Shown here in pieces: positions 34,723 through 58,247 of a stretch of 63,946 nt of DNA. Under the pieces are notes generated by a model. The model was not told the DNA's origin and made no database searches. It was given only the letters and a program-made list of their open reading frames with translations. Origin of the DNA: an uncultured Candidatus Saccharibacteria bacterium (lineage in GTDB: Bacteria > Patescibacteriota > Minisyncoccia > Phycocordibacterales > UBA918); NCBI GenBank assembly GCA_964390945.1, contig CAYMIV010000004.1:1-63946 (forward strand), read 5' to 3'. Position 1 is the stretch's first letter; the number at the start of each line of letters is the position of its first letter. The translations under genes and the position numbers were made by a program.

Positions 34723-35817
34723 ATGCGCATCGGCATCATCATGCATCCATGCGGGAACCAATCAAAAGGTCTCGAGCAATATGTGTTAGAGAGTACGGTT
34801 TCAATAATCCGGGAAGCAGACCCCAAAACCAAATTCACTGTTTTTGTGAAAGGGTATCCCGACACGAGCAGAATCCCACCGGGGACAATCGTGGTCAATC
34901 TCCCCAACACGTTTTACTGGACGCTCCACCTCCTTCTGTGGCGATCTCGGATTGATACCTTTGTCTTTTTTACGGAAACGGCTCCCTTTTTTCTTTGGAA
35001 AAAGAGCGTCATCGTGTTTTTCGACGCAGCGTACTACTACTTCGGCTCAAAAAATCTTTTTGCACGCATCAAAAGAAGGATTCGAATAGGATGGCGAAGA
35101 CAGATGCTCCGCGCTGCGCGGCACGTTGTGGCAATTTCCCAAGCGTCGAAAAAGGACCTCCTTGAAAAATTCTCCATCCCCGATAGTCATGTATCCGTCG
35201 TGTACCCGGGATTCAGGTCTTTGACGAAGCCAACCGGAACAGGCACACATGACATCGCCCCCTCTCGTCCATACTTTCTCGCCGTTGGTCCGATGAAAGA
35301 ACGCAAAAACACACTCGCAATTGTTGAGGCATTCATACGGCTTCGTAAGACGACCCGCCACACGCACTCACTCGTATTTGTGGGAAGAATGGTTGGCGGT
35401 CTCTATGAAAAACGGGTGAGAGAAGTTGTTGTTGCGAGCGGTCTTCGCGACGCAATACAGATTAAAACCAATGTTGAAGACGATGAGTTATCGTCTCTGT
35501 ACACCCATGCCGACGCACTCGTGTATCCGAGTCTCCTTGAAGGGTTTGGGTTTCCGATTCTCGAAGCACTCTCACTCGGGTGCCCGGTCATCACATCGGT
35601 AGCCACCGCAACAGAGGAGGTGGCTGGAAATGCGGGAATACTCGTCGATCCCCACAACACCGAAGAGATTACTGATGCAATGATTCAAGTTGCGGAAAAG
35701 AAATATGACCGTGAAATTTTTCTCAAACATGCCGAAGCACAGTGCGCACAATTTAGTTGGATTACTTCCGGAAAAGTTTGGAAAAAAATAATCACTGATT
35801 CACTTTATGAAACTTAA
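34723..35817 (+). CDS. GT4-family glycosyltransferase
   Basis: YPSLLEGFGFPILEALSLGCPVITSVATATEEVAG. ATG 34723 lies 2 nt after the upstream stop. Confidence 0.88.
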   Translation: MRIGIIMHPCGNQSKGLEQYVLESTVSIIREADPKTKFTVFVKGYPDTSRIPPGTIVVNLPNTFYWTLHLLLWRSRIDTFVFFTETAPFFLWKKSVIVFFDAAYYYFGSKNLFARIKRRIRIGWRRQMLRAARHVVAISQASKKDLLEKFSIPDSHVSVVYPGFRSLTKPTGTGTHDIAPSRPYFLAVGPMKERKNTLAIVEAFIRLRKTTRHTHSLVFVGRMVGGLYEKRVREVVVASGLRDAIQIKTNVEDDELSSLYTHADALVYPSLLEGFGFPILEALSLGCPVITSVATATEEVAGNAGILVDPHNTEEITDAMIQVAEKKYDREIFLKHAEAQCAQFSWITSGKVWKKIITDSLYET

Positions 35818-36967
35818 ACTTAAGGCGTGTTGGATATTGTGTCTCGTGACACTAAGGTTTTTGCTTCACGGCAGGGCGAACGATACCGGTCGAGAAATAA
35901 AGAAAATTCTTATCCTGCACGGCGGAAAACTTGGTGATATGATTTGCGCAACACCCGTTTTTCGTGCAATCAAAGAAAAATACCCACAGGCGAAAATTGT
36001 GGTAGTCGGGAACACGACAAACAAAATCACGCTCGAATACAATCCCGATGTCGATTCCTACATAGAGCTCAATGAATACAAAATTTTTGACACAATAGCA
36101 AAAATAAAAAAGGAAAATGCTGATTTTGGATGTATCGTCTCACCTGGAGCGGTTGGTCTTGCAATTTTATTCCTCGCGGGGATACCTCTCATTACGGCCC
36201 CGAGGGTCATACAGGGCTGGAGTCCCTATGAAACAAAGTCGTATAAGTTGATGTCTCATTTTGTCGTTACAAAGGGTTTTGCGGTAGGACAGTATATGCC
36301 ACGACAGTACTTGAAATTACTTGAACCAATTGGAATTTTTACCGATTCAACCAAGAAATATGTTTACTTTAGCACCCAAGCAGATGCAAAGATGGAGGAA
36401 CTCACTTCCTCCGTTAAGGTGAAATATAAATTGCTCGTTGGAGTTATGCCGGGAGCGGGAAATAAAATTAAACAGTGGCCCGCCGAACGCTTTGCGGAAG
36501 TTGCAAATCATCTCATCGAGAAGCATGGCGCTCGCATCTTCATCATCGGAAACGAGTCAAACAGGAAAGAGATAGACACCATGCGTGCCGGCGTGCGAGG
36601 ACAAGAGCACATTACCGACGCCACCAAGCTCTCGCTTGATGAACTTAAAGCGCTTATTTCCAAACTCGATATGACGGTGAGCGTTGATACCGGCCCTGTC
36701 TTTATCGCAGAGGCGCGGGGCATTCCCACCATAGACATAGGAGGAGTTATTCACGCTCATGACCAGGCGCCAAATGACGGCAAATTCCATATCCTCATTA
36801 CCTACGACGGCGAACCGCTTTTATGGTCAATGAACTGTCGAGTCTACGATTATGAAAAAGTCAGAAAGGGAATAGAAAGTATAACCGCTTCAGTTGTTAC
36901 GAATGCGGTTGACGAACTTGTGAAAAAGATAGAGGAAAAGAGAAAATTGACAGACACTTTAATTTGA
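35807..36967 (+). CDS. GT9-family glycosyltransferase (heptosyltransferase-like)
   Basis: ILILHGGKLGDMICATPVFRAIKEKYPQAKIVVVG and VSVDTGPVFIAEARGIPTIDIGG match the GT9 patterns (GD....P....lk...P, DtGp.HlA.A.g.P). Confidence 0.82.
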   Translation: MKLKLKACWILCLVTLRFLLHGRANDTGREIKKILILHGGKLGDMICATPVFRAIKEKYPQAKIVVVGNTTNKITLEYNPDVDSYIELNEYKIFDTIAKIKKENADFGCIVSPGAVGLAILFLAGIPLITAPRVIQGWSPYETKSYKLMSHFVVTKGFAVGQYMPRQYLKLLEPIGIFTDSTKKYVYFSTQADAKMEELTSSVKVKYKLLVGVMPGAGNKIKQWPAERFAEVANHLIEKHGARIFIIGNESNRKEIDTMRAGVRGQEHITDATKLSLDELKALISKLDMTVSVDTGPVFIAEARGIPTIDIGGVIHAHDQAPNDGKFHILITYDGEPLLWSMNCRVYDYEKVRKGIESITASVVTNAVDELVKKIEEKRKLTDTLI

Positions 36968-37034
36968 CGCAAGATTGCGGAAGATGTTGTTCGAAATGCG
37001 TTGAAATCAAACCACTCATTTTGGGAGAACGATA

Positions 37035-38570
37035 GTGAAAACCGCTAAGGTTTTGCTGGTGTACCCACCGACGCAGCTCATGCCGACGGAAATGCCGAGA
37101 CCCGATGGATCGCTCGGGCTCCTGTATCTTGCGGGGGCGCTCCTGCGCGCCAGCATCAAGACCGATGTGCTCGATGCAACGGTGGGCACTCCAGAACACA
37201 AGCTTGAGGAAACCTTTTACCGCAGAATTATGCAGGAGAATGGTCTCGTCAAAATTGGCCTGTCTGAAGACGAGCTCACTGAAATCATCGCGAGAGGCGG
37301 CTACAACATCGTTGGAATTAGTTGTCTCTTTACCCCGCAAACCAAGATGGCGCTCATGGTGGCGAGGGCTGCCAAGCGCGCGTCCGAAGACATTCTCGTG
37401 GTGGCCGGCGGTGTGAATGCTCGTAGCCTCCCGAAGATGTTTTTCGATGCAGGGGTGGACGTAATTTGCACTACCGAAGGAGAGGAAGTAATCGTAAACC
37501 TAGTTCGAGCATTCGAGCGGGGTGAACGTCTCCGAGTCTCTGGAACGATGGTGCGGGAACATGGCATGACCATTCGCCTGCCTGCGTCGAAGGATGACGT
37601 ACACAGCGATTTGGACCTGCTCCCGTTCCCGGCCTGGGAAAAACTCCCGTTTTTGCACTACGATACTCTTCGAGGTGGCGGTCGAGCGCAGAATCGGAGT
37701 GTCGAACGCACCGCATCAGCAATGTTTTCGCGGGGATGTCCGTTCGAGTGTCTCTTTTGTCACATCTCGAACGAAAAAGAACACCCGGAGGAATCGGGAG
37801 ACATCGGCAAGCTTCGACTGAAGTCAGAGGCTCGGGTGGTTGCGGAGCTCATACGTCTGCGAGAACTCGGTGTTCGCATGGTCTACCTTGAAGATGACTC
37901 GCTCCTCGCAAAGAAGGCGAGAATCAAGAGAATCTTTGCGCACCTCCGAGAGGTTGGCATTACGCTCAAGGATGTAAACGGGGTCAATCTTGTCCACTTT
38001 CTTAAGGGGAGGGGGCAAGGAGAGAAACCAAGCATTGATCGGGAACTCCTTGAACTTCTCTACGAAGCGGGCATGAACGAAATCGTGTTTCCCGTAGAGT
38101 CAGCGAGCCAACGAGTAATCGAGAAGTATGCAACAGGAAAGTTGAACCACGACATACTCGATGTTGTCGAGCTCGTCAGGGTTGCAGGTGAGGTTGGTAT
38201 CACGACACCGATTAACATGATGATTGGATTTCCGGATGAAACAGAGGAGGAAATCCAGCAGTCAATCGAACTCGGTCGTTGCCTCGTCGAGGCCGGAGCG
38301 CCGTACTGTTCGCTCTATATCCCCATCCCGTTCCCGGGCAGCCGCCTTTTCGAAATCGCAATCAATCAAGGGTACTTGAGAAAGGACTTTAACCCCGACG
38401 ATTTCAACTGGCGAAGGGCGGTGATGCAAAACACAACCGTCCCGCCCCGAAGAATCGAAGAGTTGCAGCGAGAGGGGTGGATGAACATTAATCCGCAAGA
38501 CTATGTTCAGAAGCGTCTCGCAATGAACGTTGTCGATCGGTGGAAGAGCGGTGAACCTGAAGTGCAGTAA
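37035..38570 (+). CDS. B12-binding-domain radical SAM protein
   Basis: N-terminal B12-binding-like domain (VLLVYPP...GISCLFT) and the radical SAM cluster motif RGCPFECLFCHI (CxxxCxxC). GTG start with GGGAGA upstream. Confidence 0.88.
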   Translation: MKTAKVLLVYPPTQLMPTEMPRPDGSLGLLYLAGALLRASIKTDVLDATVGTPEHKLEETFYRRIMQENGLVKIGLSEDELTEIIARGGYNIVGISCLFTPQTKMALMVARAAKRASEDILVVAGGVNARSLPKMFFDAGVDVICTTEGEEVIVNLVRAFERGERLRVSGTMVREHGMTIRLPASKDDVHSDLDLLPFPAWEKLPFLHYDTLRGGGRAQNRSVERTASAMFSRGCPFECLFCHISNEKEHPEESGDIGKLRLKSEARVVAELIRLRELGVRMVYLEDDSLLAKKARIKRIFAHLREVGITLKDVNGVNLVHFLKGRGQGEKPSIDRELLELLYEAGMNEIVFPVESASQRVIEKYATGKLNHDILDVVELVRVAGEVGITTPINMMIGFPDETEEEIQQSIELGRCLVEAGAPYCSLYIPIPFPGSRLFEIAINQGYLRKDFNPDDFNWRRAVMQNTTVPPRRIEELQREGWMNINPQDYVQKRLAMNVVDRWKSGEPEVQ

Positions 38571-38609: not shown

Positions 38610-39422
38610 TTACGCAAAAAACCTTGTGAGAAGTCCTTTCGTTTTCTTCGGAACCTCTTCTCCACGGATGATAAATTTTTCAATCACGTGCGCAACCCCA
38701 TCATTGTCGACTGTGGGTGCAACATAATCGGCTTCCACCTTAAGTTTGTCGTCGGCATTTCCCATCGCCACCTTAAGACCACAGACTTCAAAAAGTGGCA
38801 TATCGTTTCGTGAGTCACCGACAGCGATAATCTCATTTTGGTTGAGACCACGCATACGTATGAGTTCCTGCACCGCATGTTGCTTGTTTGCTCCGGCATG
38901 AGTAATATACACCTCCTGTCGATACTCTCTGTTTTTGTCCCAGGAGTAGAATTTGTGGCAGGAAATATCAGGGATTGACTGAAGTTCTTTGAGGCACTCA
39001 TCGGAATCTTCTTTTGATGCAAAGTAACTTAGCTGCACCGCGAGCGGTTTATATATCGGATGGTCTTTTGGATTTTTGAACTCGACCCCATTGTCATTGA
39101 TGGTAAAAGAACCGATGTCGCGCGCATCTATGAGCGCAAGGATTCGGTCGATGCCTTCCCTGGTAATGGGTTGTTCCCAGAGAACCTCATGGGTTTTCGG
39201 GTCAACAATTTGTGAGCCACCGTTAATGACACAGGGCTTGTCCAGGTTGAGTGAACTAAAAGTCTCCTTGAGCCAATCGAGCGGGCGTCCGGAAACAAGG
39301 TGAACACCGACGGAATCTCTGATTTGATTCACCGCGTTTTGTACCACTTTTGACGGAATTGTGTGCGGACCGACCGGTACAAGAGTCCCATCGACATCCA
39401 GGAGCAATGATTTATACTTCAT
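38610..39422 (-). CDS. HAD-IIB (Cof-type) sugar phosphatase
   Basis: LLLDVDGTL (motif I) and AVGDSRNDMPLFEVCGLKVAMGNADDKLK (motif IV). ATG 39422 (MKYKSLL) is preferred. Confidence 0.88.
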   Translation of the reverse strand: MKYKSLLLDVDGTLVPVGPHTIPSKVVQNAVNQIRDSVGVHLVSGRPLDWLKETFSSLNLDKPCVINGGSQIVDPKTHEVLWEQPITREGIDRILALIDARDIGSFTINDNGVEFKNPKDHPIYKPLAVQLSYFASKEDSDECLKELQSIPDISCHKFYSWDKNREYRQEVYITHAGANKQHAVQELIRMRGLNQNEIIAVGDSRNDMPLFEVCGLKVAMGNADDKLKVEADYVAPTVDNDGVAHVIEKFIIRGEEVPKKTKGLLTRFFA

Positions 39423-39442
39423 ATTTTGAGAAACATAATAGC

Positions 39443-40399
39443 ATGGCAAATCGAGAGACTACACAAAAATTCAAAAACACTAAAGTTCTCCTCATCGGGG
39501 ATACCATTGTTGATGTGTATACCTACTGCAATATTGTCTGTGAAGCTCCGTACGCGCCCATTTATGAAACTGAAAAAATTTCTTCCCAAGTATCATTCGG
39601 GGGTAACTCGCTTGTTGCTAATAATATGCTCGAACTCGGGGGTGAGGTTACCTTTATTTCAGTTATTGGAGACGACGCTGAAGCAAAGTACTATGACAGG
39701 TTTACGCATCCTAAGTTAAAGAAATTGTTCTTTACAGACAAGACAAGAAAGACCACTGTGAAAGAGCGCTGGTTTGCGGACGGCAAGGCACTTCTCCAGG
39801 TGAATCAGGTGGACAATCATGACCTTGGAAAAGATCTCGAAGAAAAGATTATGAAAGCTGTGGAACGCGAAGCAAAAAAAGTTGATGTGATTGTTGTTAT
39901 GGACCCGCAACATGGCGTGCTCACGAGAAATATCATTCAAAAACTTCTTACCGTGAGCAAGAAGTTTAATAAACCGCTCTATGTTGACGTGCAGGTATCG
40001 CACCGCAAGAGCAGACATCACTTATACAAGGGTGCAGATGCTTTTTTTCTTAATCAAAATGAGGCGAGTGCAGTGTACGCGCGCTTTGATCCGTCGAAAA
40101 CAACGACATTGCTCCAGATTGCCCGAAAACTTAATACGCGAAGGGTTGTTGTGAAGCTTGGAGAGCGGGGGTCTATTGCCTACATTGAGGGACGGCTCAT
40201 CAAAACCCCGCCGCATCCCGTTGAGGCGGTAGACGTTTGCGGGGCGGGAGATGCGTTTCTCGCCGCATTTTCTATCGCTCAAAGTCTTAGTATTGAAGAG
40301 TTGTTGCATCGTGCAAATGTGTGGGCCGGTCTTTCGACGACCATTCACGGGACTATACCTCCAAAGCGCAGAGATCTTCATAAGGCGCTTGGTCTGTAA
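39443..40399 (+). CDS. PfkB-family sugar kinase, RfaE/HldE domain-I-like (heptose-7-phosphate kinase-like)
   Basis: VLLIGDTIVDVYTYC..CEAPYAP.. compares with RfaE vGD.mlD.y..G...R.SPEAPVPV. GAGDAF is present near the C-terminus. ATG 39443 lies only 20 nt from the divergent HAD start. Confidence 0.8.
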   Translation: MANRETTQKFKNTKVLLIGDTIVDVYTYCNIVCEAPYAPIYETEKISSQVSFGGNSLVANNMLELGGEVTFISVIGDDAEAKYYDRFTHPKLKKLFFTDKTRKTTVKERWFADGKALLQVNQVDNHDLGKDLEEKIMKAVEREAKKVDVIVVMDPQHGVLTRNIIQKLLTVSKKFNKPLYVDVQVSHRKSRHHLYKGADAFFLNQNEASAVYARFDPSKTTTLLQIARKLNTRRVVVKLGERGSIAYIEGRLIKTPPHPVEAVDVCGAGDAFLAAFSIAQSLSIEELLHRANVWAGLSTTIHGTIPPKRRDLHKALGL

Positions 40400-40490
40400 T
40401 TTTCACTCCACTGCGATATACTGACCAGTGGAACTTCTTTCCGGAGTGGCTAGTTTTAATCATCGTCGAATTTCATCGCGAGAGGCAACT

Positions 40491-41225
40491 ATGGAAATCA
40501 AGACACTGAAACAGCATTTGAAAATCAAACTGTTTGCCGATGGTGCAGACCTCGTTGCAATCAAGGAAATGGCGTCGAATCCGCTTGTCGAGGGTTTTAC
40601 GACAAACCCGTCGCTCATGAGAAAGGCGGGCGTCGCCGACTACCGTGAATTTGCCCGCGCCGCACTCAACGTCATTGGTGACCGACCGATTTCATTCGAG
40701 GTCTTTGCCGATGAGTTCGGCGAGATGGAGAAACAAGCACTTGCCATCGCGTCATGGGGAGAGAACGTATACGTGAAGATTCCGGTGACGAATACGAAGG
40801 GAGAGTTTTCAGGTGAACTCATCCGGCGCCTGTCGAAACGAGGTGTGCGGCTCAATGTGACCGCTCTCATGACACTTGATCAGGTGAAACGCGTGACAGA
40901 GTGTCTCACCAAGGAAACGCCCGCTGTCATCTCGGTCTTTTGCGGCCGAATTGCCGACACCGGTGTTAACCCTGTGCCGACCATGATGGAAGCCGCCAAG
41001 GTTATGGCTGTCATGCCGAAGGCGGAACTTCTCTGGGCAAGTCCGCGGGAGCTCCTCAACGTGTTTGAGGCAGATGGGGCGGGGTGCCACATCATCACCG
41101 CAACCACGGATGTTCTGAAGAAACTTTCCCTTGTCGGGAAAGACTTGGATGAATATTCGCTCGAGACGGTACAGATGTTCTACAATGACGCACAGGCGGC
41201 TGGTTATACGATTGCAACTCAATAG
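40491..41225 (+). CDS. Transaldolase-family protein (TalC / fructose-6-phosphate aldolase type)
   Basis: KLFADGADLVAIKEMASNPLVEGFTTNPSLMRKAG and VYVKIPVT. ATG 40491 has GAGAGG upstream. Confidence 0.85.
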   Translation: MEIKTLKQHLKIKLFADGADLVAIKEMASNPLVEGFTTNPSLMRKAGVADYREFARAALNVIGDRPISFEVFADEFGEMEKQALAIASWGENVYVKIPVTNTKGEFSGELIRRLSKRGVRLNVTALMTLDQVKRVTECLTKETPAVISVFCGRIADTGVNPVPTMMEAAKVMAVMPKAELLWASPRELLNVFEADGAGCHIITATTDVLKKLSLVGKDLDEYSLETVQMFYNDAQAAGYTIATQ

Positions 41226-41284
41226 CGAAGTGTTAGATTCAAATGGCCGCTCATTCGTTTGGGCGGTCTTTTCAATGGATTATA

Positions 41285-41794
41285 ATGATTCCCATGAATA
41301 ATGACCGCACCAAGATAGTTTCGCTCGAAGTGCTTGCCACTATTGTGGAGAGATTAAGAGCAGAGGGAAAAAAGATTGTCAGCACAAACGGCACATTTGA
41401 CCTTCTTCATGTTGGGCACGTGAGGGGGCTTAAAGAGGCAAAGAATTTGGGCGACGTGCTCATTGTTGGACTAAACTCTGATTCCTCGGTGAGGGAATAT
41501 AAATCGCCGCTTCGCCCAATCATTCCAGAAGCAGAGCGAGCAGAAATGCTTGCTTCGCTCACCTGCGTCGATTATGTGGTGATTTTTGAAGAGACAGACC
41601 CAATTCGTTTCCTCGAAATTGTTAAGCCCGATATTCACGCAAAGGGTGAGGAATACGACCTGGAAAACCTCAAGGAAACACCCACAGTCAAAGCCAATGG
41701 GGGAGTCGTACGAAGCATCACTCGTGTGGGTTCGGAAGACGGAGTTAAATCAACATCAAAGATTATCGAGAAGATACTCAAAGCGTACGGATAG
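41285..41794 (+). CDS. Cytidylyltransferase-fold nucleotidyltransferase, RfaE/HldE domain-II-like (heptose-1-phosphate adenylyltransferase-like)
   Basis: TNGTFDLLHVGHVRGLKEAKNLGDVLIVGLNSDSSVR...RPI...ERAEMLASLTCVDYVVIFEETDP...VKPDIHAKGEEY matches the RfaE-II pattern almost motif for motif. Confidence 0.88.
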   Translation: MIPMNNDRTKIVSLEVLATIVERLRAEGKKIVSTNGTFDLLHVGHVRGLKEAKNLGDVLIVGLNSDSSVREYKSPLRPIIPEAERAEMLASLTCVDYVVIFEETDPIRFLEIVKPDIHAKGEEYDLENLKETPTVKANGGVVRSITRVGSEDGVKSTSKIIEKILKAYG

Positions 41795-44212: not shown

Positions 44213-44219
44213 CCCTGCC

Positions 44220-44804: not shown

Positions 44805-45253
44805 TAGTCTCAAACTTCAAAGGACGCGATCTGTTTCAAATCATAAAGTACGGTATCAGCGGAGTAACCGGCGCACTCATTCAAATGGGCAGTTTTTACG
44901 TCTTGGTAGATTTTTTTGGTGTATGGTATCTCTACGGCGTTGTTTTGGCATTTGTGCTATCGCTCATTATCACCTTCATGCTTCAAAAATTCTGGACGTT
45001 TGAAGATTATTCGACAAATAAGCTTAAGCGCCAATCATTCATGTACGGAGTGATTGCTGTTTGCGCACTCATTCTCAATGTCGGTTTTATGTACCTGCTT
45101 GTGGATGTGCTCGATTTTTGGCACATCACCTCACAGATTGTTGTCGTCCTCACGGTTGGTACGCTCACGTTTCTCATGAATCGTTTTCTCACATTTGCTG
45201 CGACCAAAACAGTAGTTGCCGATACGGCAACTGAGTTGAACACACCATCTTAA
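44801..45253 (+). CDS. GtrA-family membrane protein
   Basis: FQIIKYGISGVTGALIQMGSFYVLV...ITFMLQKFWTF...LTFLMNRFLTF, with 4 TM segments. There is an ATGA overlap with the upstream gene. Confidence 0.85.
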   Translation: MIVSNFKGRDLFQIIKYGISGVTGALIQMGSFYVLVDFFGVWYLYGVVLAFVLSLIITFMLQKFWTFEDYSTNKLKRQSFMYGVIAVCALILNVGFMYLLVDVLDFWHITSQIVVVLTVGTLTFLMNRFLTFAATKTVVADTATELNTPS

Positions 45254-48536: not shown

Positions 48537-48545
48537 TTCAATTGT

Positions 48546-50333: not shown

Positions 50334-50371
50334 GTAGTGTAGAATAACCACTAATATTTCAGAAAATATAC

Positions 50372-51127: not shown

Positions 51128-51183
51128 GCAACGTTTCTTTTGGTGTTTCTTTTGAGTTAGACTAAACACGGCACTACATACGC

Positions 51184-51831
51184 ATGGGTTACCTCTACAA
51201 TATTTCAAGAATCTTGTTGCAAGAGCGCATTGCGGTATTTGGCCACTATGTGCGGGGCAGGGTGCTTGACGCGGGGAGCGGAAGTTATGATCGCTATAGC
51301 CACCTCTTCTCTTCGGATAGTGTGGTACATCTCGATATCAAAGAAGGACCGAATGTTGATGTCGTGGGGAATATTGAGAATTTGCCGTTTCAAGACTCGG
51401 AATTTGATTCCCTCATTTCCTCGCAGGTACTCGAGCACGTTGAATATCCGGAGAAGGCCGTGATGGAAATGTGTCGCGTGCTTAAAACAGGAGGACATGC
51501 TCTCGTCAGTGTCCCGCAGTGGAATGAATTACATGAAGAACCCTATGATTTTTGGCGCTACACGCGCTATGGTATTGAGTCGCTCTTCACAAGAAACGGG
51601 TTTACCGTCGTCGAGTACGCACAACTGGGCGGGTTCTTCGCAAACCGCGCTCGCATGACACACCGATACCTTACCGACCGATTCCGGCTCCACAATCGTT
51701 CGTGGGCGCGCATTGCTTCGTTCTTCTTTCGGATTTCCGGGACTCTCGCCCTCTTGCGGGACAGGTGCGACGCGAGCGCGGCAAACCGAAAGCACACGAT
51801 TGGTTGGGTGTTCGTATTGCAAAAGAAATGA
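51184..51831 (+). CDS. Class I SAM-dependent methyltransferase (Methyltransf_11-like)
   Basis: VLDAGSGSYDRY...FDSLISSQVLEHV...GGHALVSVP. Confidence 0.85.
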   Translation: MGYLYNISRILLQERIAVFGHYVRGRVLDAGSGSYDRYSHLFSSDSVVHLDIKEGPNVDVVGNIENLPFQDSEFDSLISSQVLEHVEYPEKAVMEMCRVLKTGGHALVSVPQWNELHEEPYDFWRYTRYGIESLFTRNGFTVVEYAQLGGFFANRARMTHRYLTDRFRLHNRSWARIASFFFRISGTLALLRDRCDASAANRKHTIGWVFVLQKK

Positions 51832-53078
51832 AAATTGTATTTTTACAAGATGATTTTCCGCCCCACAGTCAGGGAGGTGCAGGATTTTCCACGTGCGATA
51901 TCGCGAGAGGAATGGCGGGGCGCGGACACGACGTATCGGTGATTACGACGTGCAGAGAAGGTTCCCTGGCCGGTGAAACCGATTATCACGGGATGAGAAT
52001 TTATACAATTGCTACAAACTACGATGTTCGCTGGCGTGCATACACGAGTCTCTACAATAGAAAGGCGGTACGGAACGTTGCTCGCATTCTCAAACAAATA
52101 CAGCCCGATGTGGTTCACGTGAATAACATTCACACCTATCTTTCGTACCATAGTTTAAAACTCTCAAAACGATATGCGAAAGCAGTCGTGTTTACCGCGC
52201 GCGACACCATGGCGTTTACCTATGGAAAACTAAATACTCAAAAGTATCTCAAAGAATTCGACGCACACATCTCATGGCGCACCAACTTCGCACAAGGAAA
52301 GAAGGGGTATAACCCTCTCCGAAATTTCTTCATACGACGATATCTGCGCTACGTTGACAAAATTGTTGCCGTTTCTGAATCGCTTGCCCGCGCCTTTGCA
52401 GACAATGGCATACCCGGCGTGGGGGTCATTCACACGGGTGCCGATACGGATGAGTGGAATGTTGCCGAATCAGACGTGCAAGTCTTCAAAGAGCGTCACG
52501 GACTCACGAATAAGAAGATTATTTTTTTTGGAGGGAGGCTCGGTGAGGGGAAGGGGGGCGGAAAAGCACTTGAATCATTTTCACTTATTATTCAAAAAAT
52601 TCCCGACACGGTACTCCTGGTTGCGGGAAAGGAAAATGCCTACACGGGGCATATGCATGAATCAGCAGATACCCCAGACATTCGCAGCCACATCGTCTAC
52701 ACCGGCTGGATGGATCGCGATGCGCTCCGGGTTGCGTATGCTGCATCGGACGTTGTGCTTGTTCCTTCACTCTATCTCGACCCATTCCCGCGAATTGTGA
52801 TTGAGGGGATGGCTGCCGGAAAACCTGTTGTGGGTTCTCGCTACGGTGGAACTCCTGAAATACTCGAAGATGGCGCCACCGGATACGTAGTCAATCCCTT
52901 CGCTGTTTCGGAGATGTCTGAAAAAGTCCTCGCGCTCCTTCGAGATCCGAATCAAGCCGTGCGGTACGGAGAAGCCGGACGGTTGAGAATCAAAAAATTT
53001 TTCAGTATTGAAAAAACCGTCGAAGCGTATGAGACATTGTATAGAAGTCTTCTAGACACAAATAGTGCCCGCCGATAG
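51828..53078 (+). CDS. GT4-family glycosyltransferase
   Basis: MKIVFLQDDFPPHSQGGAGF...VVLVPSLYLDPFPRIVIEGMAAGKPVVGSRYGGTPEIL. ATG 51828 forms an ATGA overlap with the upstream stop. The track ORF starts at 51702. Confidence 0.9.
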   Translation: MKIVFLQDDFPPHSQGGAGFSTCDIARGMAGRGHDVSVITTCREGSLAGETDYHGMRIYTIATNYDVRWRAYTSLYNRKAVRNVARILKQIQPDVVHVNNIHTYLSYHSLKLSKRYAKAVVFTARDTMAFTYGKLNTQKYLKEFDAHISWRTNFAQGKKGYNPLRNFFIRRYLRYVDKIVAVSESLARAFADNGIPGVGVIHTGADTDEWNVAESDVQVFKERHGLTNKKIIFFGGRLGEGKGGGKALESFSLIIQKIPDTVLLVAGKENAYTGHMHESADTPDIRSHIVYTGWMDRDALRVAYAASDVVLVPSLYLDPFPRIVIEGMAAGKPVVGSRYGGTPEILEDGATGYVVNPFAVSEMSEKVLALLRDPNQAVRYGEAGRLRIKKFFSIEKTVEAYETLYRSLLDTNSARR

Positions 53079-53088: not shown

Positions 53089-53101
53089 CGTTCACGTGAC
53101 C

Positions 53102-53317
53102 TCACGGAGTCACCGGGAGACTCAGACCGCAATCGTCGTAGACGCGCAAGTAATAGTCGTTCTCTGCCGCCGCCGAAGACTCGTTGTGTTCCCTCGCTGT
53201 ACGGAGGGCGGTCTCCATATCAGCAAAATCATCTTCGTGCGTGAGTTCATTGCCGAAGCCATGAACTCCCACAACTCGAAACATACCCGATGGAGCCTTC
53301 AAGTCGACTGTTTCCAC
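53102..53317 (-). CDS. Hypothetical small acidic protein (71 aa from GTG 53317; the track ORF extends to TTG 53383)
   Basis: AAGGAGG lies 4 nt upstream of GTG 53317. A TTGACA (53383-53378) with a 16-nt spacer and TACTCT promoter-like site would overlap the longer start. No family was recognised. Confidence 0.45.
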   Translation of the reverse strand: METVDLKAPSGMFRVVGVHGFGNELTHEDDFADMETALRTAREHNESSAAAENDYYLRVYDDCGLSLPVTP

Positions 53318-53494
53318 TGGACCTCCTTTCGTATAGTGCGTACAAGTCAGCCAATAGAGTACAAGTTTTTTTGGACATGTCAAATTGTTTATGTCCAGGG
53401 GGCAAATTCAGGAAATTGGTGGTATCGTGTATCCTACTCTGAAACCTTTCAGGAAACACATGGGTTTTAGTCCGAAAGAATAATTTAGATAAAC

Positions 53495-54262
53495 ATGGCA
53501 GACGGCAAAATACTTGGAATAATCCCCGCACGTATCGGCTCAACGCGAATACCGAATAAAATGCTCAAGGACATATGCGGAAAGACGCTCATTGAGCGTA
53601 CGTATGAGCGAACCAAGGAAGCGAAATCGCTCGATGCGATTGTCATTGCAACTGATTCTGACGAAATAGAAAAGGTGGCGCGCTCATTCGGTGCGCAGGT
53701 GATACGTTCAATCAATGATCACAAAAACGGAACAGAACGCGCGGGAGAGGCGACGCGACTATTTACTGATTTTGAGCCGGACATTGTGGTGACGGTCTGG
53801 GGAGATGAGCCGCTCTATCCTGCGACCGCTATCGATCGATGTGTTGCCATGCTCAAAGAGCAACCAAACCTCCAAGCAGCAACTGCCGCTGACCGTATTA
53901 CGAATGAAGCGATGATTCACGCAGACAGCGTTGTCGAGGTGGTTACCAATAAACACGACCACGCGCTTTACATTTCCCGGGCTGCAATCCCGTATTCATA
54001 TACTGACCACAAGTTTGACTACTATCATGTAATCGGAGCAATGGCGATGCGTCGCGATTTCCTCTTTCAATATATTGAGATGGAACAGACCCCACTTGAA
54101 AAGGCAGAGAGTGTCGAGCAATTACGCATCATTGAGAATGGATACAATCTCGGGATTGTGAAGGGTGATTTTGAAAATCTCGGCGTGAATACTCCCGGCG
54201 AGTACGAAGCAGTCGTCAAAATTTTTGAAAAAAGAATTGCTGAAGGAAAGTTGAAGTCGTAG
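53495..54262 (+). CDS. kdsB: CMP-Kdo synthetase-like cytidylyltransferase (3-deoxy-manno-octulosonate cytidylyltransferase family)
   Basis: ILGIIPARIGSTRIPNKMLKDICGKTLIERTYERT...AIVIATDSDEI matches the KdsB pattern IIPAR..S.R.P.K.L..i.GkpmI..v.e. The exact sugar substrate cannot be told from the sequence. Confidence 0.8.
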   Translation: MADGKILGIIPARIGSTRIPNKMLKDICGKTLIERTYERTKEAKSLDAIVIATDSDEIEKVARSFGAQVIRSINDHKNGTERAGEATRLFTDFEPDIVVTVWGDEPLYPATAIDRCVAMLKEQPNLQAATAADRITNEAMIHADSVVEVVTNKHDHALYISRAAIPYSYTDHKFDYYHVIGAMAMRRDFLFQYIEMEQTPLEKAESVEQLRIIENGYNLGIVKGDFENLGVNTPGEYEAVVKIFEKRIAEGKLKS

Positions 54263-54265: not shown

Positions 54266-54904
54266 ATGACAAAACTTGAAGCGTTCATGCAGGAAAAAGC
54301 CCCGACCATCAAAGAGTTTTGGTTTGATGTCGACGGAGTGATGACACCACAGGGCGCCATAACAATTTACGATGTGCGCGACGGAGGCGCACTTATTGGT
54401 TTTGAGCGCAAAGACGGTATTACGAGTACACGACTCGTTCCGTGCGATGAACATGGCACGCCACGCGCAAATATCGTCGAGTGCATCGCCGGATATGGGG
54501 ATGAGCCAATCATGGAGGGGTACCGATTCGACCCCCGTGATGGAAAGGTCGTTGAATACCTTGTCGAGAACGGATTCCCGGTCTACTTCATTAGCGGCAG
54601 GGATTCAGCATGCGTCCGAAAGCGCGCTCTTGCGCTCGGAGCCACGCCCCTCCTCGGTGTAAAAGACAAACTTGCGCTCATCCGGGAAAAAGCGAATTCA
54701 GCGCTCGGAGAGATTATGTTCATTGGAGATGGGATTCAGGACGTGGAGACGCTTCGTGCCGTCGGTTTTTCTGTCGCACCGAAAGACGCGTCACCCGAGG
54801 CGCTCTTCGCTGCGCACGTGTGCACTGATGCGAGGGGCGGAGAAGGCGTACTTTCTGAAGTTATTACATTATTTCTCAAAACACGAGGCCTCTGGCCGGC
54901 GTGA
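54266..54904 (+). CDS. HAD-IIIA phosphatase, KdsC (Kdo-8-phosphate phosphatase)-like, with a ~45-aa insertion
   Basis: FDVDGVMT (motif I), FISGRDS, FIGDGIQDVETLRAVGFSVAPKDA and ARGGEGVLSEV. The insertion lies between motif I and the RDG region. Confidence 0.78.
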   Translation: MTKLEAFMQEKAPTIKEFWFDVDGVMTPQGAITIYDVRDGGALIGFERKDGITSTRLVPCDEHGTPRANIVECIAGYGDEPIMEGYRFDPRDGKVVEYLVENGFPVYFISGRDSACVRKRALALGATPLLGVKDKLALIREKANSALGEIMFIGDGIQDVETLRAVGFSVAPKDASPEALFAAHVCTDARGGEGVLSEVITLFLKTRGLWPA

Positions 54905-54908: not shown

Positions 54909-55958
54909 TTACGGTGGGGTTGGACTTTCGAGGTCCCTAAATTCTGCAATGCGCTCCGCGAGCGTTTGCAGTTCGAGAATCGTAATATGCTGTCCCGTAT
55001 CGGTGAGCGAATCGCCGACTTCTATGAGAAGCCCGTCGTAGAGGTATTCATCCGCAGAAGTTTTAATACGCAAGGCGTCGATCGTTTTATCGACGATGTG
55101 GTCTCGCATGATTGTGCCGAAGGTGTGTGAAGGATCAAAGAAGACCCGAACTCCAATATCGTCTTTCACCCGTTTAGCCGCATCGTGAACAGGCAAGTTT
55201 CGATGTTCTCCTTTTTCCGCCACATCAACCCCGCGCTGGATCATAACGAGTTTGTTTTCGAGCGTCTTGATATCGCCACCCGCCGCATAGTGTGCGAGAC
55301 CTACCCATGTTTTTTCCATCGTACTCATACCCGATTCGGGAACGGCACCGAGCCATTTTCCGTTTTTTATGCCCACACCCCAGCCGTTTCGGAGTGCAAA
55401 CTTTCCCATAACCGCAGCTTGGTATCCGAGTTGATTCACCGCAGGGTTCCACACAAAAAATTTGTTCTTCGGCAGTATTCGCTCGTACGGGGGAAGTTGA
55501 ATGGTCGGATCGACGACTTCGGTTGCGGCAATCAAACCCGTTTCTCGAATAAGCCGATTGGCAATATGAACGCTCGGGGGGATTTCAAACTGTCCCGGTC
55601 CCTCACCGTTAATATAACGATTCAGATTTCTTTGATACGCAGGAAAATCCATGCCCATACCAACACCGCTCGCCTCCATTGAAGTGCGCGACTTGAGTCC
55701 CACCACGCGGAGTCCCCAAATTGCAGGTCTTTTTTCTCCGCCTTTTGACGGAGCGGCAATACGCGCAATATCAAACAGTTGCCCCTGGTTGTCCTCGTTT
55801 ATCGAACAGGGACCCGCAATAATTGTTACGGCTTTATTTTTCATACAGGTAACGTTCTTTATAACACACGCGGGGTGGTTGAGGTATCGATTCGTACATA
55901 CTTCGTGAGGGTTGATATTGACAATTTCAATATTTTCCACTACAATGATTCGTGGCAT
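54909..55958 (-). CDS. DAHP-synthase-I / KDO8P-synthase family PEP aldolase (KdsA-like, divergent)
   Basis: VTIIAGPCSINE, GLIAATEVVDP, FFDPSHTFG and YDGLLIEVGDSLTDTGQH correspond to the family motifs IAGPCS.E, TEv.d, DPSH and GlmiEvH...A.SDg.Q. Confidence 0.78.
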   Translation of the reverse strand: MPRIIVVENIEIVNINPHEVCTNRYLNHPACVIKNVTCMKNKAVTIIAGPCSINEDNQGQLFDIARIAAPSKGGEKRPAIWGLRVVGLKSRTSMEASGVGMGMDFPAYQRNLNRYINGEGPGQFEIPPSVHIANRLIRETGLIAATEVVDPTIQLPPYERILPKNKFFVWNPAVNQLGYQAAVMGKFALRNGWGVGIKNGKWLGAVPESGMSTMEKTWVGLAHYAAGGDIKTLENKLVMIQRGVDVAEKGEHRNLPVHDAAKRVKDDIGVRVFFDPSHTFGTIMRDHIVDKTIDALRIKTSADEYLYDGLLIEVGDSLTDTGQHITILELQTLAERIAEFRDLESPTPP

Positions 55959-55981
55959 ATTTTTTCTCGAGGCGGCGTAAA

Positions 55982-56407
55982 ATGGACAGATGCAACACGC
56001 ACGGCGACATCGGCTTCTGGATGAGGCCCGTGTACTGGGAAGGAATGAGGGCGGGAACGATTACAACGCTCGTGCGTGAGGGTGATCGTTCAAATTCTAA
56101 TGACACACGCACGGCGCCTGCCGGCGTCGATCTCGCTGTTCGGTTCATAAGAAAGACCGGCGATTCTTCACGTGGAATCAAAGCGGAGCTGTATCCGGAT
56201 GACGGCATGACGGTGCGCCGCATCGGCATGGTGGTGAAGAAAATCAAGGACCTTACGCAGGAAGACCTGCGCGGCACCGCCCCCGACCAGTCGACCCCTG
56301 ATTTGGTACGTTACCACCTCGCTATGATCGGCAACACGGAACTCCCATCGCCGGAGGATGTCGTGACGGTGTGGAAGATTGAATACAGACCCTTCGTCAC
56401 TGATTGA
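55982..56407 (+). CDS. ASCH-domain-like small protein
   Basis: WMRPVYWEGMRAGTITTLVREGDR...VVKKIKDLTQEDL resembles the ASCH/PUA-like fold pattern. This is a weak call. ATG 55982 is preferred over GTG 55952, which overlaps the divergent start. Confidence 0.55.
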   Translation: MDRCNTHGDIGFWMRPVYWEGMRAGTITTLVREGDRSNSNDTRTAPAGVDLAVRFIRKTGDSSRGIKAELYPDDGMTVRRIGMVVKKIKDLTQEDLRGTAPDQSTPDLVRYHLAMIGNTELPSPEDVVTVWKIEYRPFVTD

Positions 56408-56422
56408 CGTGTGACCCGGGGC

Positions 56423-56449
56423 GACCACTCGAAAGGGTGGTCTTTTTTT
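56423..56449 (+). terminator. Rho-independent terminator
   Basis: gaccac/tcgaaagg/gtggtc followed by ttttttt. Confidence 0.8.
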
Positions 56450-56477
56450 ATAGATTCTGTATCGTAATATCATTGCT

Positions 56478-58247
56478 ATGAAGAAGGAATCAACGCTCAT
56501 AATTTTTGGTACCGCGCTCCCACAAAAACCGGATATCTGGTGGAAGCAATTCGACACCGTCGTTGCGGGCACTTCGCTCCGTACTCTGATTGAGGCGAGG
56601 GAGTGTGCATGGGTTGATTTTGATATGTTCGTGAAACCGGGAAGCATTTATGAAGCGACAGAGCATCTTCATGAACTTGCGCTTCTCACACTTCCCGATG
56701 GAACCCCGCTCACAAAATCAGCCATGTACAGGGGATATGAACTCTGGTGGATACACCACACAGACCTCTTTCTTCACTTCTGTTTGCCGCTCACGCAGTA
56801 TAGAGCGCTCCTCGAATATGCGCGGGAGTTCGGGTCGGTGTATTTATTCGAACCGCTCTATCGAGACCTCTTCAAGAGTTATCTTGTTGCACACAAACGT
56901 ACGGTACACATCGAATCATCGAGAGCGATTCGCACACGGCTGCCACTTGGGGCACTCCTCCAAGCGCTGCTTACGCTCGTATTTCTCCCCGCCCTCGTAA
57001 TACGGCGAAAAGCCATCTTAGTTTTTACCAGCGATAAATTTTATGACTACGATTTTAGATTGAAGTTCATTTATGAAGAACTTCGGGGAAGGAAACTGGC
57101 GTTCATGGAGTGTGTTCGGAGCGTACAGCCGTGGCACATCGTTCTCAAACACGCGTTTCTGCGCAGGCGCGCAGTCATATACCCGGTTGGCGTCGCGCTC
57201 ATTGCGCGCTTCATAAGCACTCTTACGAAGGCAAATGACAAATTCCGCAGCCGGTATGACCGATTGGTCGAATCACTTGAAGACCCGGAGAAGCGCTTTA
57301 AGTTTACCGCCGCAACAATGTACGTAAAAAATGCCGGCAATGATATCTGGGCAATCCGTACCATGGAGTTAATCCTCTCCCTCATTGGCGTAAAAACAGC
57401 ATTTATTCCTGCGGCGAACGAACGGAGTTTGCACACCGTGCTTGCGTCTAAACTCAAGCACATACCGACCGTCGGCATTCTTCACGGCTTTGCTTCTCGA
57501 AATTACAATACGTACGATTTCATGCTCGGTTACAGTGGCGATTTGATGATGTCAGTCGACACGTACGGAGTTTGGAGTGAGTGGTGGAGGGAGTATTACC
57601 TCACGCACAGCAAAGCGTATCGCCCAAAACAACTCGTTGTCTCTGGTGTCATGCGACCGGTTGCTCCAGCAAACAGCGTATCGAAAGATACTCGACCGAA
57701 TGATACAACACACGTGCTCTTTGTGTCTGAAATTGTCGCACTCCCAACTGAAGTCATTCCGTATCTTGATAAACTTCTTCTCGCTCCCGCTCTGTCGGTG
57801 TCGATTAAATTCCGAGCCACGAATGATTCGTTTGAGGCATGGCTTACAAAACACCGTCCCGACATTCTCACGAAAGTCGGCATCCTCAAGGGCACGATGG
57901 CTGAAGCAATCGCTGCGTGTGATGTTGTTGTCGGCTCACAGAGCACCGGGGTCATCGAAGCGACACTGCAACACAAACCCTTCGTGCTTTTTAATACTGA
58001 AAAGTGGGGAGATTACTACGATATGCGGAGCGTCAATGTCGGATACACACTGTTTGCGGAAAACCCCGATGAGTTTGTGGAGTGTGTACGAAATGTGAGC
58101 GGTGTTCCTGAAACGATTCTTGAGGACTTACGAAACAAATTCTTCGGTAATCCGCATAAAAACGGAAGCGCGTGGGTGGTGGATCAACTTGTGCAGAACC
58201 TAAAGAGCACTCACTCTTCGCCAAAGCCAGATGTTGAGAATAAGTGA
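56478..58247 (+). CDS. 589-aa protein of unknown family; the C-terminal half looks GT-B / capsule-biosynthesis-like (candidate CMP-sugar or Kdo transferase)
   Basis: PTVGILHGFASRNYNTYDF...HVLFVSEIVALP...ACDVVVGSQSTGVIEATLQHKPFVLFN resembles HG/HP plus S-S-type motifs of GT-B sialyl/Kdo/glycerophosphate transferases. No firm family assignment is possible by eye. Confidence 0.7.
   Translation: MKKESTLIIFGTALPQKPDIWWKQFDTVVAGTSLRTLIEARECAWVDFDMFVKPGSIYEATEHLHELALLTLPDGTPLTKSAMYRGYELWWIHHTDLFLHFCLPLTQYRALLEYAREFGSVYLFEPLYRDLFKSYLVAHKRTVHIESSRAIRTRLPLGALLQALLTLVFLPALVIRRKAILVFTSDKFYDYDFRLKFIYEELRGRKLAFMECVRSVQPWHIVLKHAFLRRRAVIYPVGVALIARFISTLTKANDKFRSRYDRLVESLEDPEKRFKFTAATMYVKNAGNDIWAIRTMELILSLIGVKTAFIPAANERSLHTVLASKLKHIPTVGILHGFASRNYNTYDFMLGYSGDLMMSVDTYGVWSEWWREYYLTHSKAYRPKQLVVSGVMRPVAPANSVSKDTRPNDTTHVLFVSEIVALPTEVIPYLDKLLLAPALSVSIKFRATNDSFEAWLTKHRPDILTKVGILKGTMAEAIAACDVVVGSQSTGVIEATLQHKPFVLFNTEKWGDYYDMRSVNVGYTLFAENPDEFVECVRNVSGVPETILEDLRNKFFGNPHKNGSAWVVDQLVQNLKSTHSSPKPDVENK

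Follow-up and report, generated by a model that had tools for sequence, protein, structure and literature searches.

Heptose and Kdo (3-deoxy-D-manno-octulosonic acid) are regarded as marks of a Gram-negative outer membrane, and nucleotide-heptoses act as agonists of innate immunity. The closest known routes are the lipopolysaccharide (LPS) precursor pathways of Gram-negative bacteria, which use GmhA, HldE, GmhB, and HldD for heptose and KdsD, KdsA, KdsC, and KdsB for Kdo, with the transferases WaaA and WaaC/F; CMP-Kdo or nucleotide-heptose also serves non-LPS surface polymers, as in the E. coli group 2 capsule (KpsU, KpsF, KpsS/KpsC) and in heptose-containing S-layer and capsule glycans. Here, we describe a locus on contig CAYMIV010000004.1 (a stretch of 63,946 nt, hereafter the window) that seems to make an activated heptose and a Kdo-like acid sugar via substitute enzymes for several textbook steps, most likely for a flippase-exported surface glycan rather than LPS. 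We put at roughly 0.55 the probability that the region is part of a ~50 kb cell-surface glycan island in a bacterium of the Candidate Phyla Radiation (CPR; Patescibacteria) and provides, through non-canonical enzymes, routes to two nucleotide sugars. Its most interesting element is a 380-amino-acid (aa) protein with a phosphomannose-isomerase (PMI) fold, a candidate replacement for GmhA, followed by a kdsB-linked clade of a family of DAHP (3-deoxy-D-arabino-heptulosonate 7-phosphate) synthases (DAHPS).

According to two commentaries on Tang et al. (Science 2024), nucleotide-heptose enzymes are known well beyond Gram-negative bacteria, and mono-, di-, and tri-domain heptose nucleotidyltransferases have been described (PMC11461863, PMC11573728). 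The window follows the same logic of isomerase, kinase, phosphatase, and nucleotidyltransferase; however, the two commentaries name neither a cupin- or PMI-fold isomerase nor its fusions to PfkB, HldC, or DUF89 domains. ADP-heptose biosynthesis has been annotated, at annotation level, in freshwater Paceibacteria (PMC9166423), and our literature search found no paper on Kdo or heptosyltransferases in CPR.

Nearly all open reading frames (ORFs) of the window longer than ~120 aa were listed and scanned against Pfam and NCBIfam; in addition, the window and 100 related loci (1.65 Mb in total; designated by L numbers) were searched by six-frame tblastn with E. coli proteins as queries (E <= 1e-3). 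Like the LPS precursor pathways, the window is predicted to provide an NDP-heptose and a CMP-activated 3-deoxy-ulosonic acid, and it shares with them a transferase of glycosyltransferase family 9 (GT9), HldA- and HldC-like enzymes, KdsB, and a plausible KdsC-family phosphatase. Unlike them, it has no GmhA, GmhB, HldD, KdsD, canonical KdsA, WaaA, WaaL, lipid A, or Lpt gene in view; it has instead proposed substitutes (the PMI-fold isomerase, a Cof-type HAD phosphatase, and a DAHPS-derived synthase), and its setting is a Wzx/GtrA polysaccharide island in a bacterium that is probably monoderm. The possible use of CMP-Kdo or nucleotide-heptose for a non-LPS surface polymer is a feature shared with the group 2 capsule and with heptose-containing S-layer glycans; unlike for the group 2 capsule, no Capsule_synth match, KpsF, or ABC exporter was found in the window, and export is apparently Wzx-dependent.

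A sequence-only reading of this DNA had proposed a heptose pathway, a Kdo-like pathway, and a GT9 heptosyltransferase in one locus with no lipid A genes in view. All genes it named are real ORFs at or near the positions it gave, each with a significant match to a family, including the GT9 gene and the two RfaE-like genes, for which TIGR02198 and TIGR02199 are the best models (both below cutoff); one gene, the supposed KdsA, was mislabelled, and the transaldolase, the Cof-type HAD, the B12-radical S-adenosylmethionine (SAM) enzyme, and the PMI-fold ORF had not been listed. The combination of GT9, nucleotide-heptose, and KdsB/KdsC modules in one locus stood and recurs in related loci, while "heptose pathway" holds for the HldA- and HldC-like genes only in a non-canonical sense, GmhA, GmhB, and HldD being absent from the window.

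A PMI-fold protein in a putative heptose module

The heptose module comprises the following genes.

35807-36967 (+): GT9-family glycosyltransferase, putative heptosyltransferase (PF01075, 8.8e-19, 68.2 bits vs cutoff 22)
37035-38570 (+): B12-binding radical SAM enzyme, class B methyltransferase-like (PF02310 and PF04055)
38610-39449 (minus): Cof-type HAD-IIB sugar phosphatase (PF08282, 3e-39; likely start ATG at 39422)
39443-40399 (+): HldA/RfaE-domain-I-like PfkB kinase, putative heptose-7-phosphate 1-kinase (TIGR02198, 1.1e-47)
40428-41225 (+): transaldolase (TIGR02134, 345 bits, above the cutoff of 282; likely start at 40491)
41243-41794 (+): HldC/RfaE-domain-II-like putative heptose-1-phosphate nucleotidyltransferase (TIGR02199, 9.4e-50; likely start at 41285)
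41778-42920 (minus): 380-aa protein with the bicupin fold of type I PMI (AlphaFold2 and Foldseek)

The gene for the 380-aa protein lies directly after the nucleotidyltransferase gene, on the opposite strand. The protein had no match in Pfam (E <= 5), NCBIfam, or the PDB sequences, and no detectable sequence similarity to ManA (TIGR00218: E 0.12, 11.5 bits). Its AlphaFold2 model, built from 24 sequences, reached a pLDDT of 94.6, and the top 17 Foldseek matches of this model in the PDB were all type I phosphomannose isomerases (E 1.6e-15 to 2e-11), with TM-scores of 0.55-0.58 when normalised to the query and up to 0.71 when normalised to the target. The cupin site H-x-H-x4-E...H is conserved across the family, H135, E140, and H211 being invariant and H133 nearly so. 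Like type I PMI (ManA; 1pmi, 3h1y, 1qwr, 1zx5), the protein thus combines a bicupin fold with a metal-binding cupin motif, and its proposed chemistry, from a 2-ketose phosphate to a manno-aldose phosphate, is the same; unlike in ManA, the metal motif is the compact cupin H-x-H-x4-E...H, and the neighbouring genes and fused domains are those of heptose synthesis rather than of GDP-mannose synthesis.

With only 282 clusters at 50% identity in a set of 1.84 billion representatives, this is a small family; the 234 homologues collected come from CPR, DPANN-type archaea, Verrucomicrobiota, Planctomycetes, Carboxydochorda, and several eukaryotes (a sponge, Pelomyxa, and EukProt transcriptomes). Several relatives (P numbers) are fusion proteins.

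P0282, P0285: N-terminal RfaE-domain-II nucleotidyltransferase, then PMI-fold domain
P0295: PMI-fold domain, then C-terminal RfaE-domain-II nucleotidyltransferase
P0362: PfkB kinase, nucleotidyltransferase, and PMI-fold domain
P0361: DUF89/ARMT1 phosphatase, nucleotidyltransferase, and PMI-fold domain
P0363: DUF89/ARMT1 phosphatase and PMI-fold domain
P0368, P0399: PMI-fold domain and PfkB kinase

The architecture of P0368 was seen on many contigs (a 9-member cluster). In one relative or another, the domain is thus fused to each of the other three enzymes of the four-step heptose route (kinase, phosphatase, and nucleotidyltransferase), which points to it as the isomerase step; the chemistry needed at that step, conversion of a 2-ketose phosphate to a manno-aldose phosphate, is moreover that of PMI on its six-carbon substrate, fructose-6-phosphate. 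On these grounds, and from the modelled fold, we propose that the 380-aa protein is a sedoheptulose-7-phosphate isomerase that replaces GmhA. No SIS domain was found in the scanned ORFs of the window, and E. coli GmhA had no tblastn match in the window or in the 100 related loci. A literature search found no paper on a cupin-type sedoheptulose-7-phosphate isomerase. The isomerase to which the two commentaries refer is presumably the SIS-type GmhA.

Gene neighbourhoods lead in the same direction. The block running from GT4 through GT9 to GtrA is collinear, gene by gene, in an independent contig (L090), with protein identities mostly of 40-76% (lowest, 28-29%), and the order GT9, radical SAM, HAD, PfkB, transaldolase, HldC, and PMI-fold gene is identical in the two. 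Relatives of the PMI-fold gene adjoin heptose genes both in L090 (15842-16981) and in L094 (10001-11707); in the latter locus, the PMI-fold domain is fused with HldC and is accompanied by a complete HldE, a DUF89 phosphatase, a homologue of HldD (36% identity, 4.5e-46), and two GT9 genes, and neither a SIS-domain gene nor GmhA was found in it. Because the block is syntenic in L090, and because GT9, KdsB, and the synthase described below occur together again in L007, L010, and L099, the grouping of these genes is not due to chance.

A competing explanation is that the 380-aa protein serves a GDP-mannose branch, as a mannose-6-phosphate isomerase or as an isomerase or epimerase of some other hexose or nucleotide sugar, with GmhA encoded elsewhere. 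The fold is indeed that of type I PMI, and the island includes a GDP-mannose 4,6-dehydratase gene (59680-60702; TIGR01472, 382 bits vs cutoff 415), whose product needs GDP-mannose; in addition, the homologue in Carboxydochorda sits in a sugar-catabolic cluster, which speaks against our proposal in that it suggests a family of sugar isomerases in general, not necessarily specific for heptose. However, the fusion partners (RfaE-II-type nucleotidyltransferases, PfkB kinases, and DUF89 phosphatases) are those expected of the heptose route and not of a PMI/PMM/ManC route, the gene lies inside a heptose module in the window, L090, and L094, and the sequence has no detectable similarity to ManA; we therefore regard this explanation as unlikely and infer heptose specificity for the loci described here. 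If a GmhA replacement is correct, this protein would be a concrete candidate for a non-orthologous one, it would explain heptose loci that seem to have no isomerase, and it would give a function to a family that has no Pfam or NCBIfam model and reaches eukaryotes.

A second pairing of a nucleotidyltransferase with a cupin was observed in the island, near the GDP-mannose 4,6-dehydratase gene; the 242-aa product of 62982-63710 (+) consists of a cytidylyltransferase-like domain and a C-terminal cupin of type II mannose-6-phosphate isomerase.

The other enzymes of the module were assigned with differing precision. TIGR02198 was by far the best model for the PfkB kinase (163 bits, vs 67 bits for ribokinase; cutoff 345), and the HldC-like nucleotidyltransferase scored just below the cutoff of TIGR02199 (168 vs 181.5 bits); the canonical (F/L)xxGxSTT (STTR5) motif was not found in the latter, so that no NTP specificity is predicted. 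The transaldolase gene lies between the kinase and nucleotidyltransferase genes both in the window and in L090 (75% identity), and its product likely supplies sedoheptulose-7-phosphate. GmhB had no tblastn match in the window or the 100 related loci; the sole nearby phosphatase is the Cof-type HAD-IIB protein (TIGR00099, 135 bits vs cutoff 137), encoded divergently from the kinase gene with the same layout in L090 (70% identity); it is a candidate substitute for GmhB. No convincing HldD homologue was found in the window; the best candidate, the product of 12549-14000, reached only 57 bits with TIGR02197 (cutoff 275) and was 27% identical to E. coli HldD. The heptose pathway of the window thus appears non-canonical, with substitutes proposed for the missing enzymes.

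The GT9 protein had 3tov (GT9, 1.5e-14) and 1psw (heptosyltransferase II) as its best PDB sequence matches and was 23% identical to E. coli WaaQ (1e-11, tblastn); with the NCBIfam equivalog models for WaaC/F/Q, it scored 62-70 bits, below all cutoffs (135-467). Of its 404 homologues, the named ones are from CPR, among them Parcubacteria, Pacebacteria, and Azambacteria; GT9 homologues are thus common in these lineages. The adjoining B12-radical SAM enzyme had P- and C-methyltransferase models as its top NCBIfam matches, none of them near its cutoff; it may modify the heptose or the glycan, by methylation or in another way. Its gene also adjoins GT9 in L090 (11246-12760, 74% identity), and a distant relative (22% identity) lies near GT9 in L094 (15889-17301).

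A DAHPS-like synthase beside kdsB

The second module consists of three genes.

53495-54262 (+): KdsB-family CMP-ulosonate (CMP-Kdo) synthetase (PF02348, 3.9e-47)
54266-54904 (+): KdsC/YrbI-family HAD phosphatase with an inserted N-terminal segment (TIGR01670, 1.3e-22)
54909-55847 (minus): metal-type phosphoenolpyruvate (PEP) aldolase of the superfamily of DAHPS and Kdo-8-phosphate synthase (KDO8PS), proposed Kdo8P-like synthase (motifs, fold, and context)

Judged by its profile matches, the first of these is a genuine KdsB; it scored 233 bits with NF003952 (above the cutoff of 193) and 148.6 bits with TIGR00466 (slightly below 155.2), and its top 13 PDB sequence matches were all CMP-Kdo synthetases, the best being 1gq9 (1.9e-40), which we take to be the capsule-specific KpsU, the search output naming it only as a CMP-Kdo synthetase. 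The assignment of the second as a KdsC-like phosphatase is plausible; the DxDGV motif is present, identity to E. coli KdsC is 33% over 125 residues (1.5e-9), and TIGR01670 gave 80 bits (cutoff 107), with the model for the phosphatase of KDN (2-keto-3-deoxynononic acid) 9-phosphate also matching.

The third protein, which the sequence-only reading had called KdsA-like, is not a canonical Kdo8P synthase but belongs to a divergent DAHPS family found mainly in CPR. Its ORF spans 54909-55958, and M38 is taken as the true start since homologues are ~311 aa long. The family has at least 589 homologues, the named ones from Roizmanbacteria or Patescibacteria. In one view, KDO8PS itself arose from a DAHPS-like ancestor within the same superfamily. 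The window protein has in common with both DAHPS type I-beta and KDO8PS that it is a PEP aldolase of TIM-barrel form, in which the metal is bound by Cys, His, Glu, and Asp and PEP by Lys and Arg; unlike them, it is very divergent, scoring 23.4 bits with Pfam DAHP_synth_1 (cutoff 25.5) and carrying K-S-R-T in place of KPRT or KANRS. The motifs IIAGPCS, GLKSRT, RGVD, FDPSH, LxE, and TDTxQH are kept in the family, as are C51, K89-S-R-T92, R242, H278, E313, and D320 (ORF numbering), all of which are invariant except T92. Partial local alignments with the DAHP synthases of T. maritima and P. furiosus bring these ligands into register with the motifs GPC, ERG, DPSH, EV, and SD. E. coli KdsA had no tblastn match, and no KDO8PS was matched among NCBIfam models or PDB sequences. 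A profile search against PDB sequences matched DAHPS only, with marginal E-values, identity to solved structures being 13-22%.

The fold was also tried as a discriminator; the AlphaFold2 model (pLDDT 82.5) matched DAHPS type I-beta (1rzm, 2.4e-11) and KDO8PS (3stc, 5e-11) about equally and so separated neither from the other. A metagenome scan with the single window sequence added little, returning only four loci, all with shikimate-linked distant relatives.

Genome context was more informative. Of 89 loci encoding the family (80 GTDB species-representative loci and nine others), 45 have three or more shikimate genes no farther than 10 kb from the synthase gene, and in two long CPR contigs a homologue heads a complete shikimate operon. 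The window synthase and its clade, in contrast, had no association with shikimate genes wherever the context was known. Its nearest relatives (L006, L007, L010, and L099; 52-62% identity) adjoin kdsB, so that this adjacency was seen in five independent loci and in two arrangements, the synthase gene being convergent after kdsB-kdsC in L006 and L007, as it is in the window, whereas in L010 and L099 it follows kdsB immediately and on the same strand, in tandem. All of these kdsB-linked copies are part of glycan loci; L010 and L099 have both a Wzx flippase and GT9, L006 has the flippase, and L007 has GT9. In a neighbour-joining tree (60 bootstrap replicates), the window-type synthases form one clade with 98% bootstrap support, given likewise to the window's core group, and with no shikimate-linked member among those of known context; L010 and L099 group at 95%.

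Because this distinct clade is repeatedly kdsB-linked, a Kdo-like product of the CMP-ulosonate arm is likely and a Kdo-like role is a better reading of the window synthase than a shikimate role; we propose a DAHPS lineage, mainly of CPR, one branch of which was recruited to an ulosonate pathway, apparently independently of canonical KdsA. The objection that the sequence-only reading had itself foreseen, namely that the KdsA-like enzyme is a shikimate-pathway DAHP synthase, is half borne out; the family is mostly shikimate-linked, but the window clade is kdsB-linked and its KdsB neighbour matches the CMP-Kdo synthetase family. Having both kinds of context within a single DAHPS-like family, in separate clades, could help to show how the specificity of PEP aldolases evolves.

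Several points weigh against a Kdo-like role. The K-S-R-T motif has the four-residue form of the KPRT of DAHP synthases and not that of the KANRS of Kdo8P synthases; a nested subclade (L011, L100, and L013; 77% bootstrap) lies among housekeeping genes rather than kds genes; and only three positions (Q22, W43, and D112, mature numbering) separate the kdsB-linked clade from shikimate-linked members. Residues that might mark a switch in specificity thus come down to these three positions and the conserved KSRT motif, from which no verdict on arabinose-5-phosphate versus erythrose-4-phosphate can be drawn, and the synthase may still use the latter. No SIS/CBS protein that could be KdsD was found in the window, and KdsD had no tblastn match in the window or related loci. 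As to a Kdo transferase, there was no Pfam match to WaaA (Glycos_transf_N) or KpsC/KpsS (Capsule_synth) and no tblastn match to WaaA (GT30) in the window, GT99-type Kdo transferases having no specific model in the scans.

There are two other explanations of the synthase gene. According to the first, it encodes the organism's shikimate-pathway DAHP synthase, its position beside kdsB and kdsC has no meaning, and the KdsB substrate is made otherwise or scavenged. That would agree with most family members heading complete shikimate operons, with the DAHPS-like motif and weak sequence matches, with the very few clade-specific residues, and with the finding that none of the 80 GTDB species-representative genomes listed has two copies. 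However, the kdsB adjacency in five independent loci and two gene arrangements, the well-supported clade that is never shikimate-linked where the context is known, and the lack of any other ulosonate synthase in the kdsB-linked loci (Pfam scans of the window found no NeuB-type synthase) make a housekeeping role improbable. According to the second, the synthase keeps erythrose-4-phosphate, and the product, dephosphorylated DAHP, is activated with CMP as a seven-carbon Kdo analogue for the glycan. The conserved DAHPS-type motif, the lack of a KdsD match, and the island's transaldolase, which interconverts erythrose-4-phosphate and sedoheptulose-7-phosphate, would all suit such a heptulosonic acid; however, KdsB scores as a bona fide CMP-Kdo synthetase, and KdsD may lie elsewhere in the genome or be substituted by another isomerase. 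We know of no CMP-activated heptulosonate, and this explanation is less probable still than a shikimate role.

Three further observations concern the synthase family. In many CPR genomes, a gene for a ~300-aa PfkB-family kinase lies directly upstream of the DAHPS-like gene (e.g., L001 9082-9996; also L048, L056, L059, L066, L067, L072, L076, L088, L089, and others), both with and without shikimate genes alongside; this kinase might supply an aldose phosphate. The family also heads shikimate operons in contigs labelled Bacteroidetes or Bacteroidia (L042, L044, L046, L047, L078-L080, L082, and L083) and in one labelled Elusimicrobia (L057); provided that these labels are correct, the family also occurs outside CPR. 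Many GTDB contigs are titled "uncultured Gammaproteobacteria bacterium" (TPA; L013, L014, L016-L018, and ~25 more loci), and these titles look unreliable; their DAHPS-like genes share branches with those of contigs labelled Roizmanbacteria or Patescibacteria, and the titles were not used for taxonomy.

Assembly, export, and host of the predicted glycan

One large glycan-biosynthesis island extends from ~12.5 kb to the right end of the window, downstream of murD and murC (3304-7256). It contains many GT4 genes, two GT2 genes, many SAM methyltransferase genes, a sulfotransferase gene, two polysaccharide deacetylase genes, an AsnB-type amidotransferase gene, and a UDP-glucose-dehydrogenase-like gene, as well as genes for GtrA, the Wzx-type flippase, the GDP-mannose 4,6-dehydratase, and several polytopic membrane proteins. 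Those between and beyond the two sugar modules include the following.

43289-44212: GT2 (Pfam), with a methyltransferase gene next to it
44801-45253: GtrA (Pfam)
45262-45987 (minus): GT2 (Pfam), with a methyltransferase gene next to it
46725-48536 and 48546-50333: two polytopic membrane proteins (11 and 7 transmembrane segments in a hydropathy scan)
Next, up to 53078: two methyltransferases, then GT4 (51702-53078; Pfam)
55952-56407 (+): conserved 151-aa ORF, divergent from the synthase gene
56478-58247 (+): 589-aa protein whose C-terminus resembles a glycosyltransferase; gene likewise divergent from that of the synthase
58200-59498 (minus): Wzx-type (Polysacc_synt) flippase (PF01943, 7e-18)

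Most genes of the block 43289-53078 have matches in L090 or L006, and a Wzx-type flippase gene also lies near the synthase gene in L009, besides the loci named above. Homologues of the 151-aa and 589-aa proteins occur in L006 and L009 (48-65% identity), and the proteins encoded in 55952-58247 had weak NCBIfam matches to "BFO_1060 glycosyltransferase" and "surface carbohydrate biosynthesis protein". The 589-aa protein was considered as a Kdo transferase and dropped, having no Pfam or PDB-sequence match even with a three-sequence profile and only faint NCBIfam matches; it is also encoded in L091 with no Kds gene within 10 kb and may thus not be Kdo-specific.

From these families, folds, neighbourhoods, and fusions, a route can be drawn in which the catalytic steps, the identities of both sugars, and the final acceptor are predictions. 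Transaldolase would provide sedoheptulose-7-phosphate, which the PMI-fold protein would convert to D-glycero-D-manno-heptose-7-phosphate; the HldA-like kinase would phosphorylate C1, the Cof-type HAD would take off the 7-phosphate, and the HldC-like enzyme would form NDP-heptose, probably the D,D isomer because no HldD is present. GT9 would transfer this heptose, which the B12-radical SAM enzyme may modify. In the second arm, the DAHPS-like synthase would condense PEP with an aldose phosphate, which for a Kdo8P product would be arabinose-5-phosphate; the condensation product would then be dephosphorylated by the KdsC-like phosphatase and activated with CMP by KdsB. Both sugars would join a heavily methylated, probably sulfated glycan built by GT4 and GT2 enzymes, presumably on a polyprenyl carrier in a Wzx/GtrA-dependent manner rather than on lipid A; the Wzx flippase would export it, and GtrA and the polytopic membrane proteins would handle it outside the membrane.

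Neither a priming phosphoglycosyltransferase nor a Kdo transferase of a known family was identified in the window, and no acceptor or anchor for the glycan was identified there. Pfam scans and tblastn gave no match in the window to Lpx, LptA/C, BamA, WaaA, or WaaL, the lipid A and LPS queries being E. coli LpxA/B/D, LptA/C, BamA, WaaA, and WaaL, with LpxC and LpxK not among them. The earlier statement that no lipid A genes are in view is therefore borne out for the window. The suggestion of a Hep-Kdo glycoconjugate on a non-lipid-A anchor agrees with the lack of lipid A, Lpt, and Kdo-transferase genes there, but no anchor was found to go with it, and "LPS-inner-core-like" is best read as an analogy.

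For three window proteins (the synthase, the GT9 protein, and the PMI-fold protein), all of the closest named relatives belong to CPR, under the names Roizmanbacteria, Parcubacteria, Pacebacteria, and "Patescibacteria group"; the sequence-only reading had supposed such an organism. CPR have been placed within a monoderm (single-membrane) clade (Witwinowski et al., bioRxiv 10.1101/2021.05.31.446380), and the host is thus probably single-membraned. An ordinary LPS inner core, with lipid A, WaaA, and Lpt/Bam genes elsewhere in a diderm genome, would account for the textbook signature of GT9, ADP-heptose, and CMP-Kdo genes found together in the 64 kb in view, but it is very improbable given these CPR relatives, the lack of Lpx, Lpt, Bam, WaaA, and WaaL matches in the window and the 1.65 Mb of related loci, the embedding of the genes in a Wzx/GtrA-type polysaccharide island near murC and murD, and GT9 scores far below the WaaC/F/Q cutoffs.

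Against a self-contained non-LPS route stand further considerations: with only 64 kb of the genome in view, genes for GmhA, KdsD, and lipid A synthesis could be encoded outside it; NCBIfam equivalog cutoffs are not reached by the kinase, the nucleotidyltransferase, or the KdsC-like protein; and the taxonomy drawn from window proteins is a matter of best-hit names. In its widest form, the proposal would be that the PMI-fold family replaces GmhA in CPR, DPANN archaea, and some bacteria and eukaryotes, that a DAHPS clade was recruited independently of KdsA, and that single-membraned bacteria build Hep/Kdo glycans with no lipid A; we hold this tentatively, at somewhat short of even odds. If true, non-canonical and self-contained heptose and Kdo routes in CPR would imply a wider use of both sugars in surface glycans, and genome surveys that score "LPS genes" could misread organisms with such routes.

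Other genes of the window

A block at 28458-32957 contains the sulfotransferase gene, a polysaccharide deacetylase gene, the AsnB-type amidotransferase gene, and a truncated UDP-glucose-dehydrogenase-like gene and is kept in L090 (4438-8852); this suggests a sulfated and/or amidated uronic-acid part of the glycan. L099 additionally has ATP sulfurylase/APS kinase. The ORF at 53096-53470, directly before kdsB, was taken as spurious, having no matches and a low-complexity, arginine-rich sequence.

Outside the sugar modules, a tRNA gene was located near the left end.

2089-2162 (minus): tRNA-Ile

This gene is overlapped by an ORF at 1823-2449 (+; 208 aa) that has no family match and is unlikely to be a real gene. 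Farther right, after the mur genes and before the glycan island, a gene (9945-11939, +) encodes a protein resembling type IV secretion coupling proteins (TrwB/VirD4/TraG-like). A tandem that looks like a duplication was found at 15145-20779, in which an ATP-grasp gene (15145-16347) precedes a PHP-domain gene (17074-17910) and a second ATP-grasp gene (18879-20036) precedes a second PHP-domain gene (20033-20779); in between lie a PaaX/Cas2-like gene (16422-17000) and an ORF of 317 aa that matched nothing.

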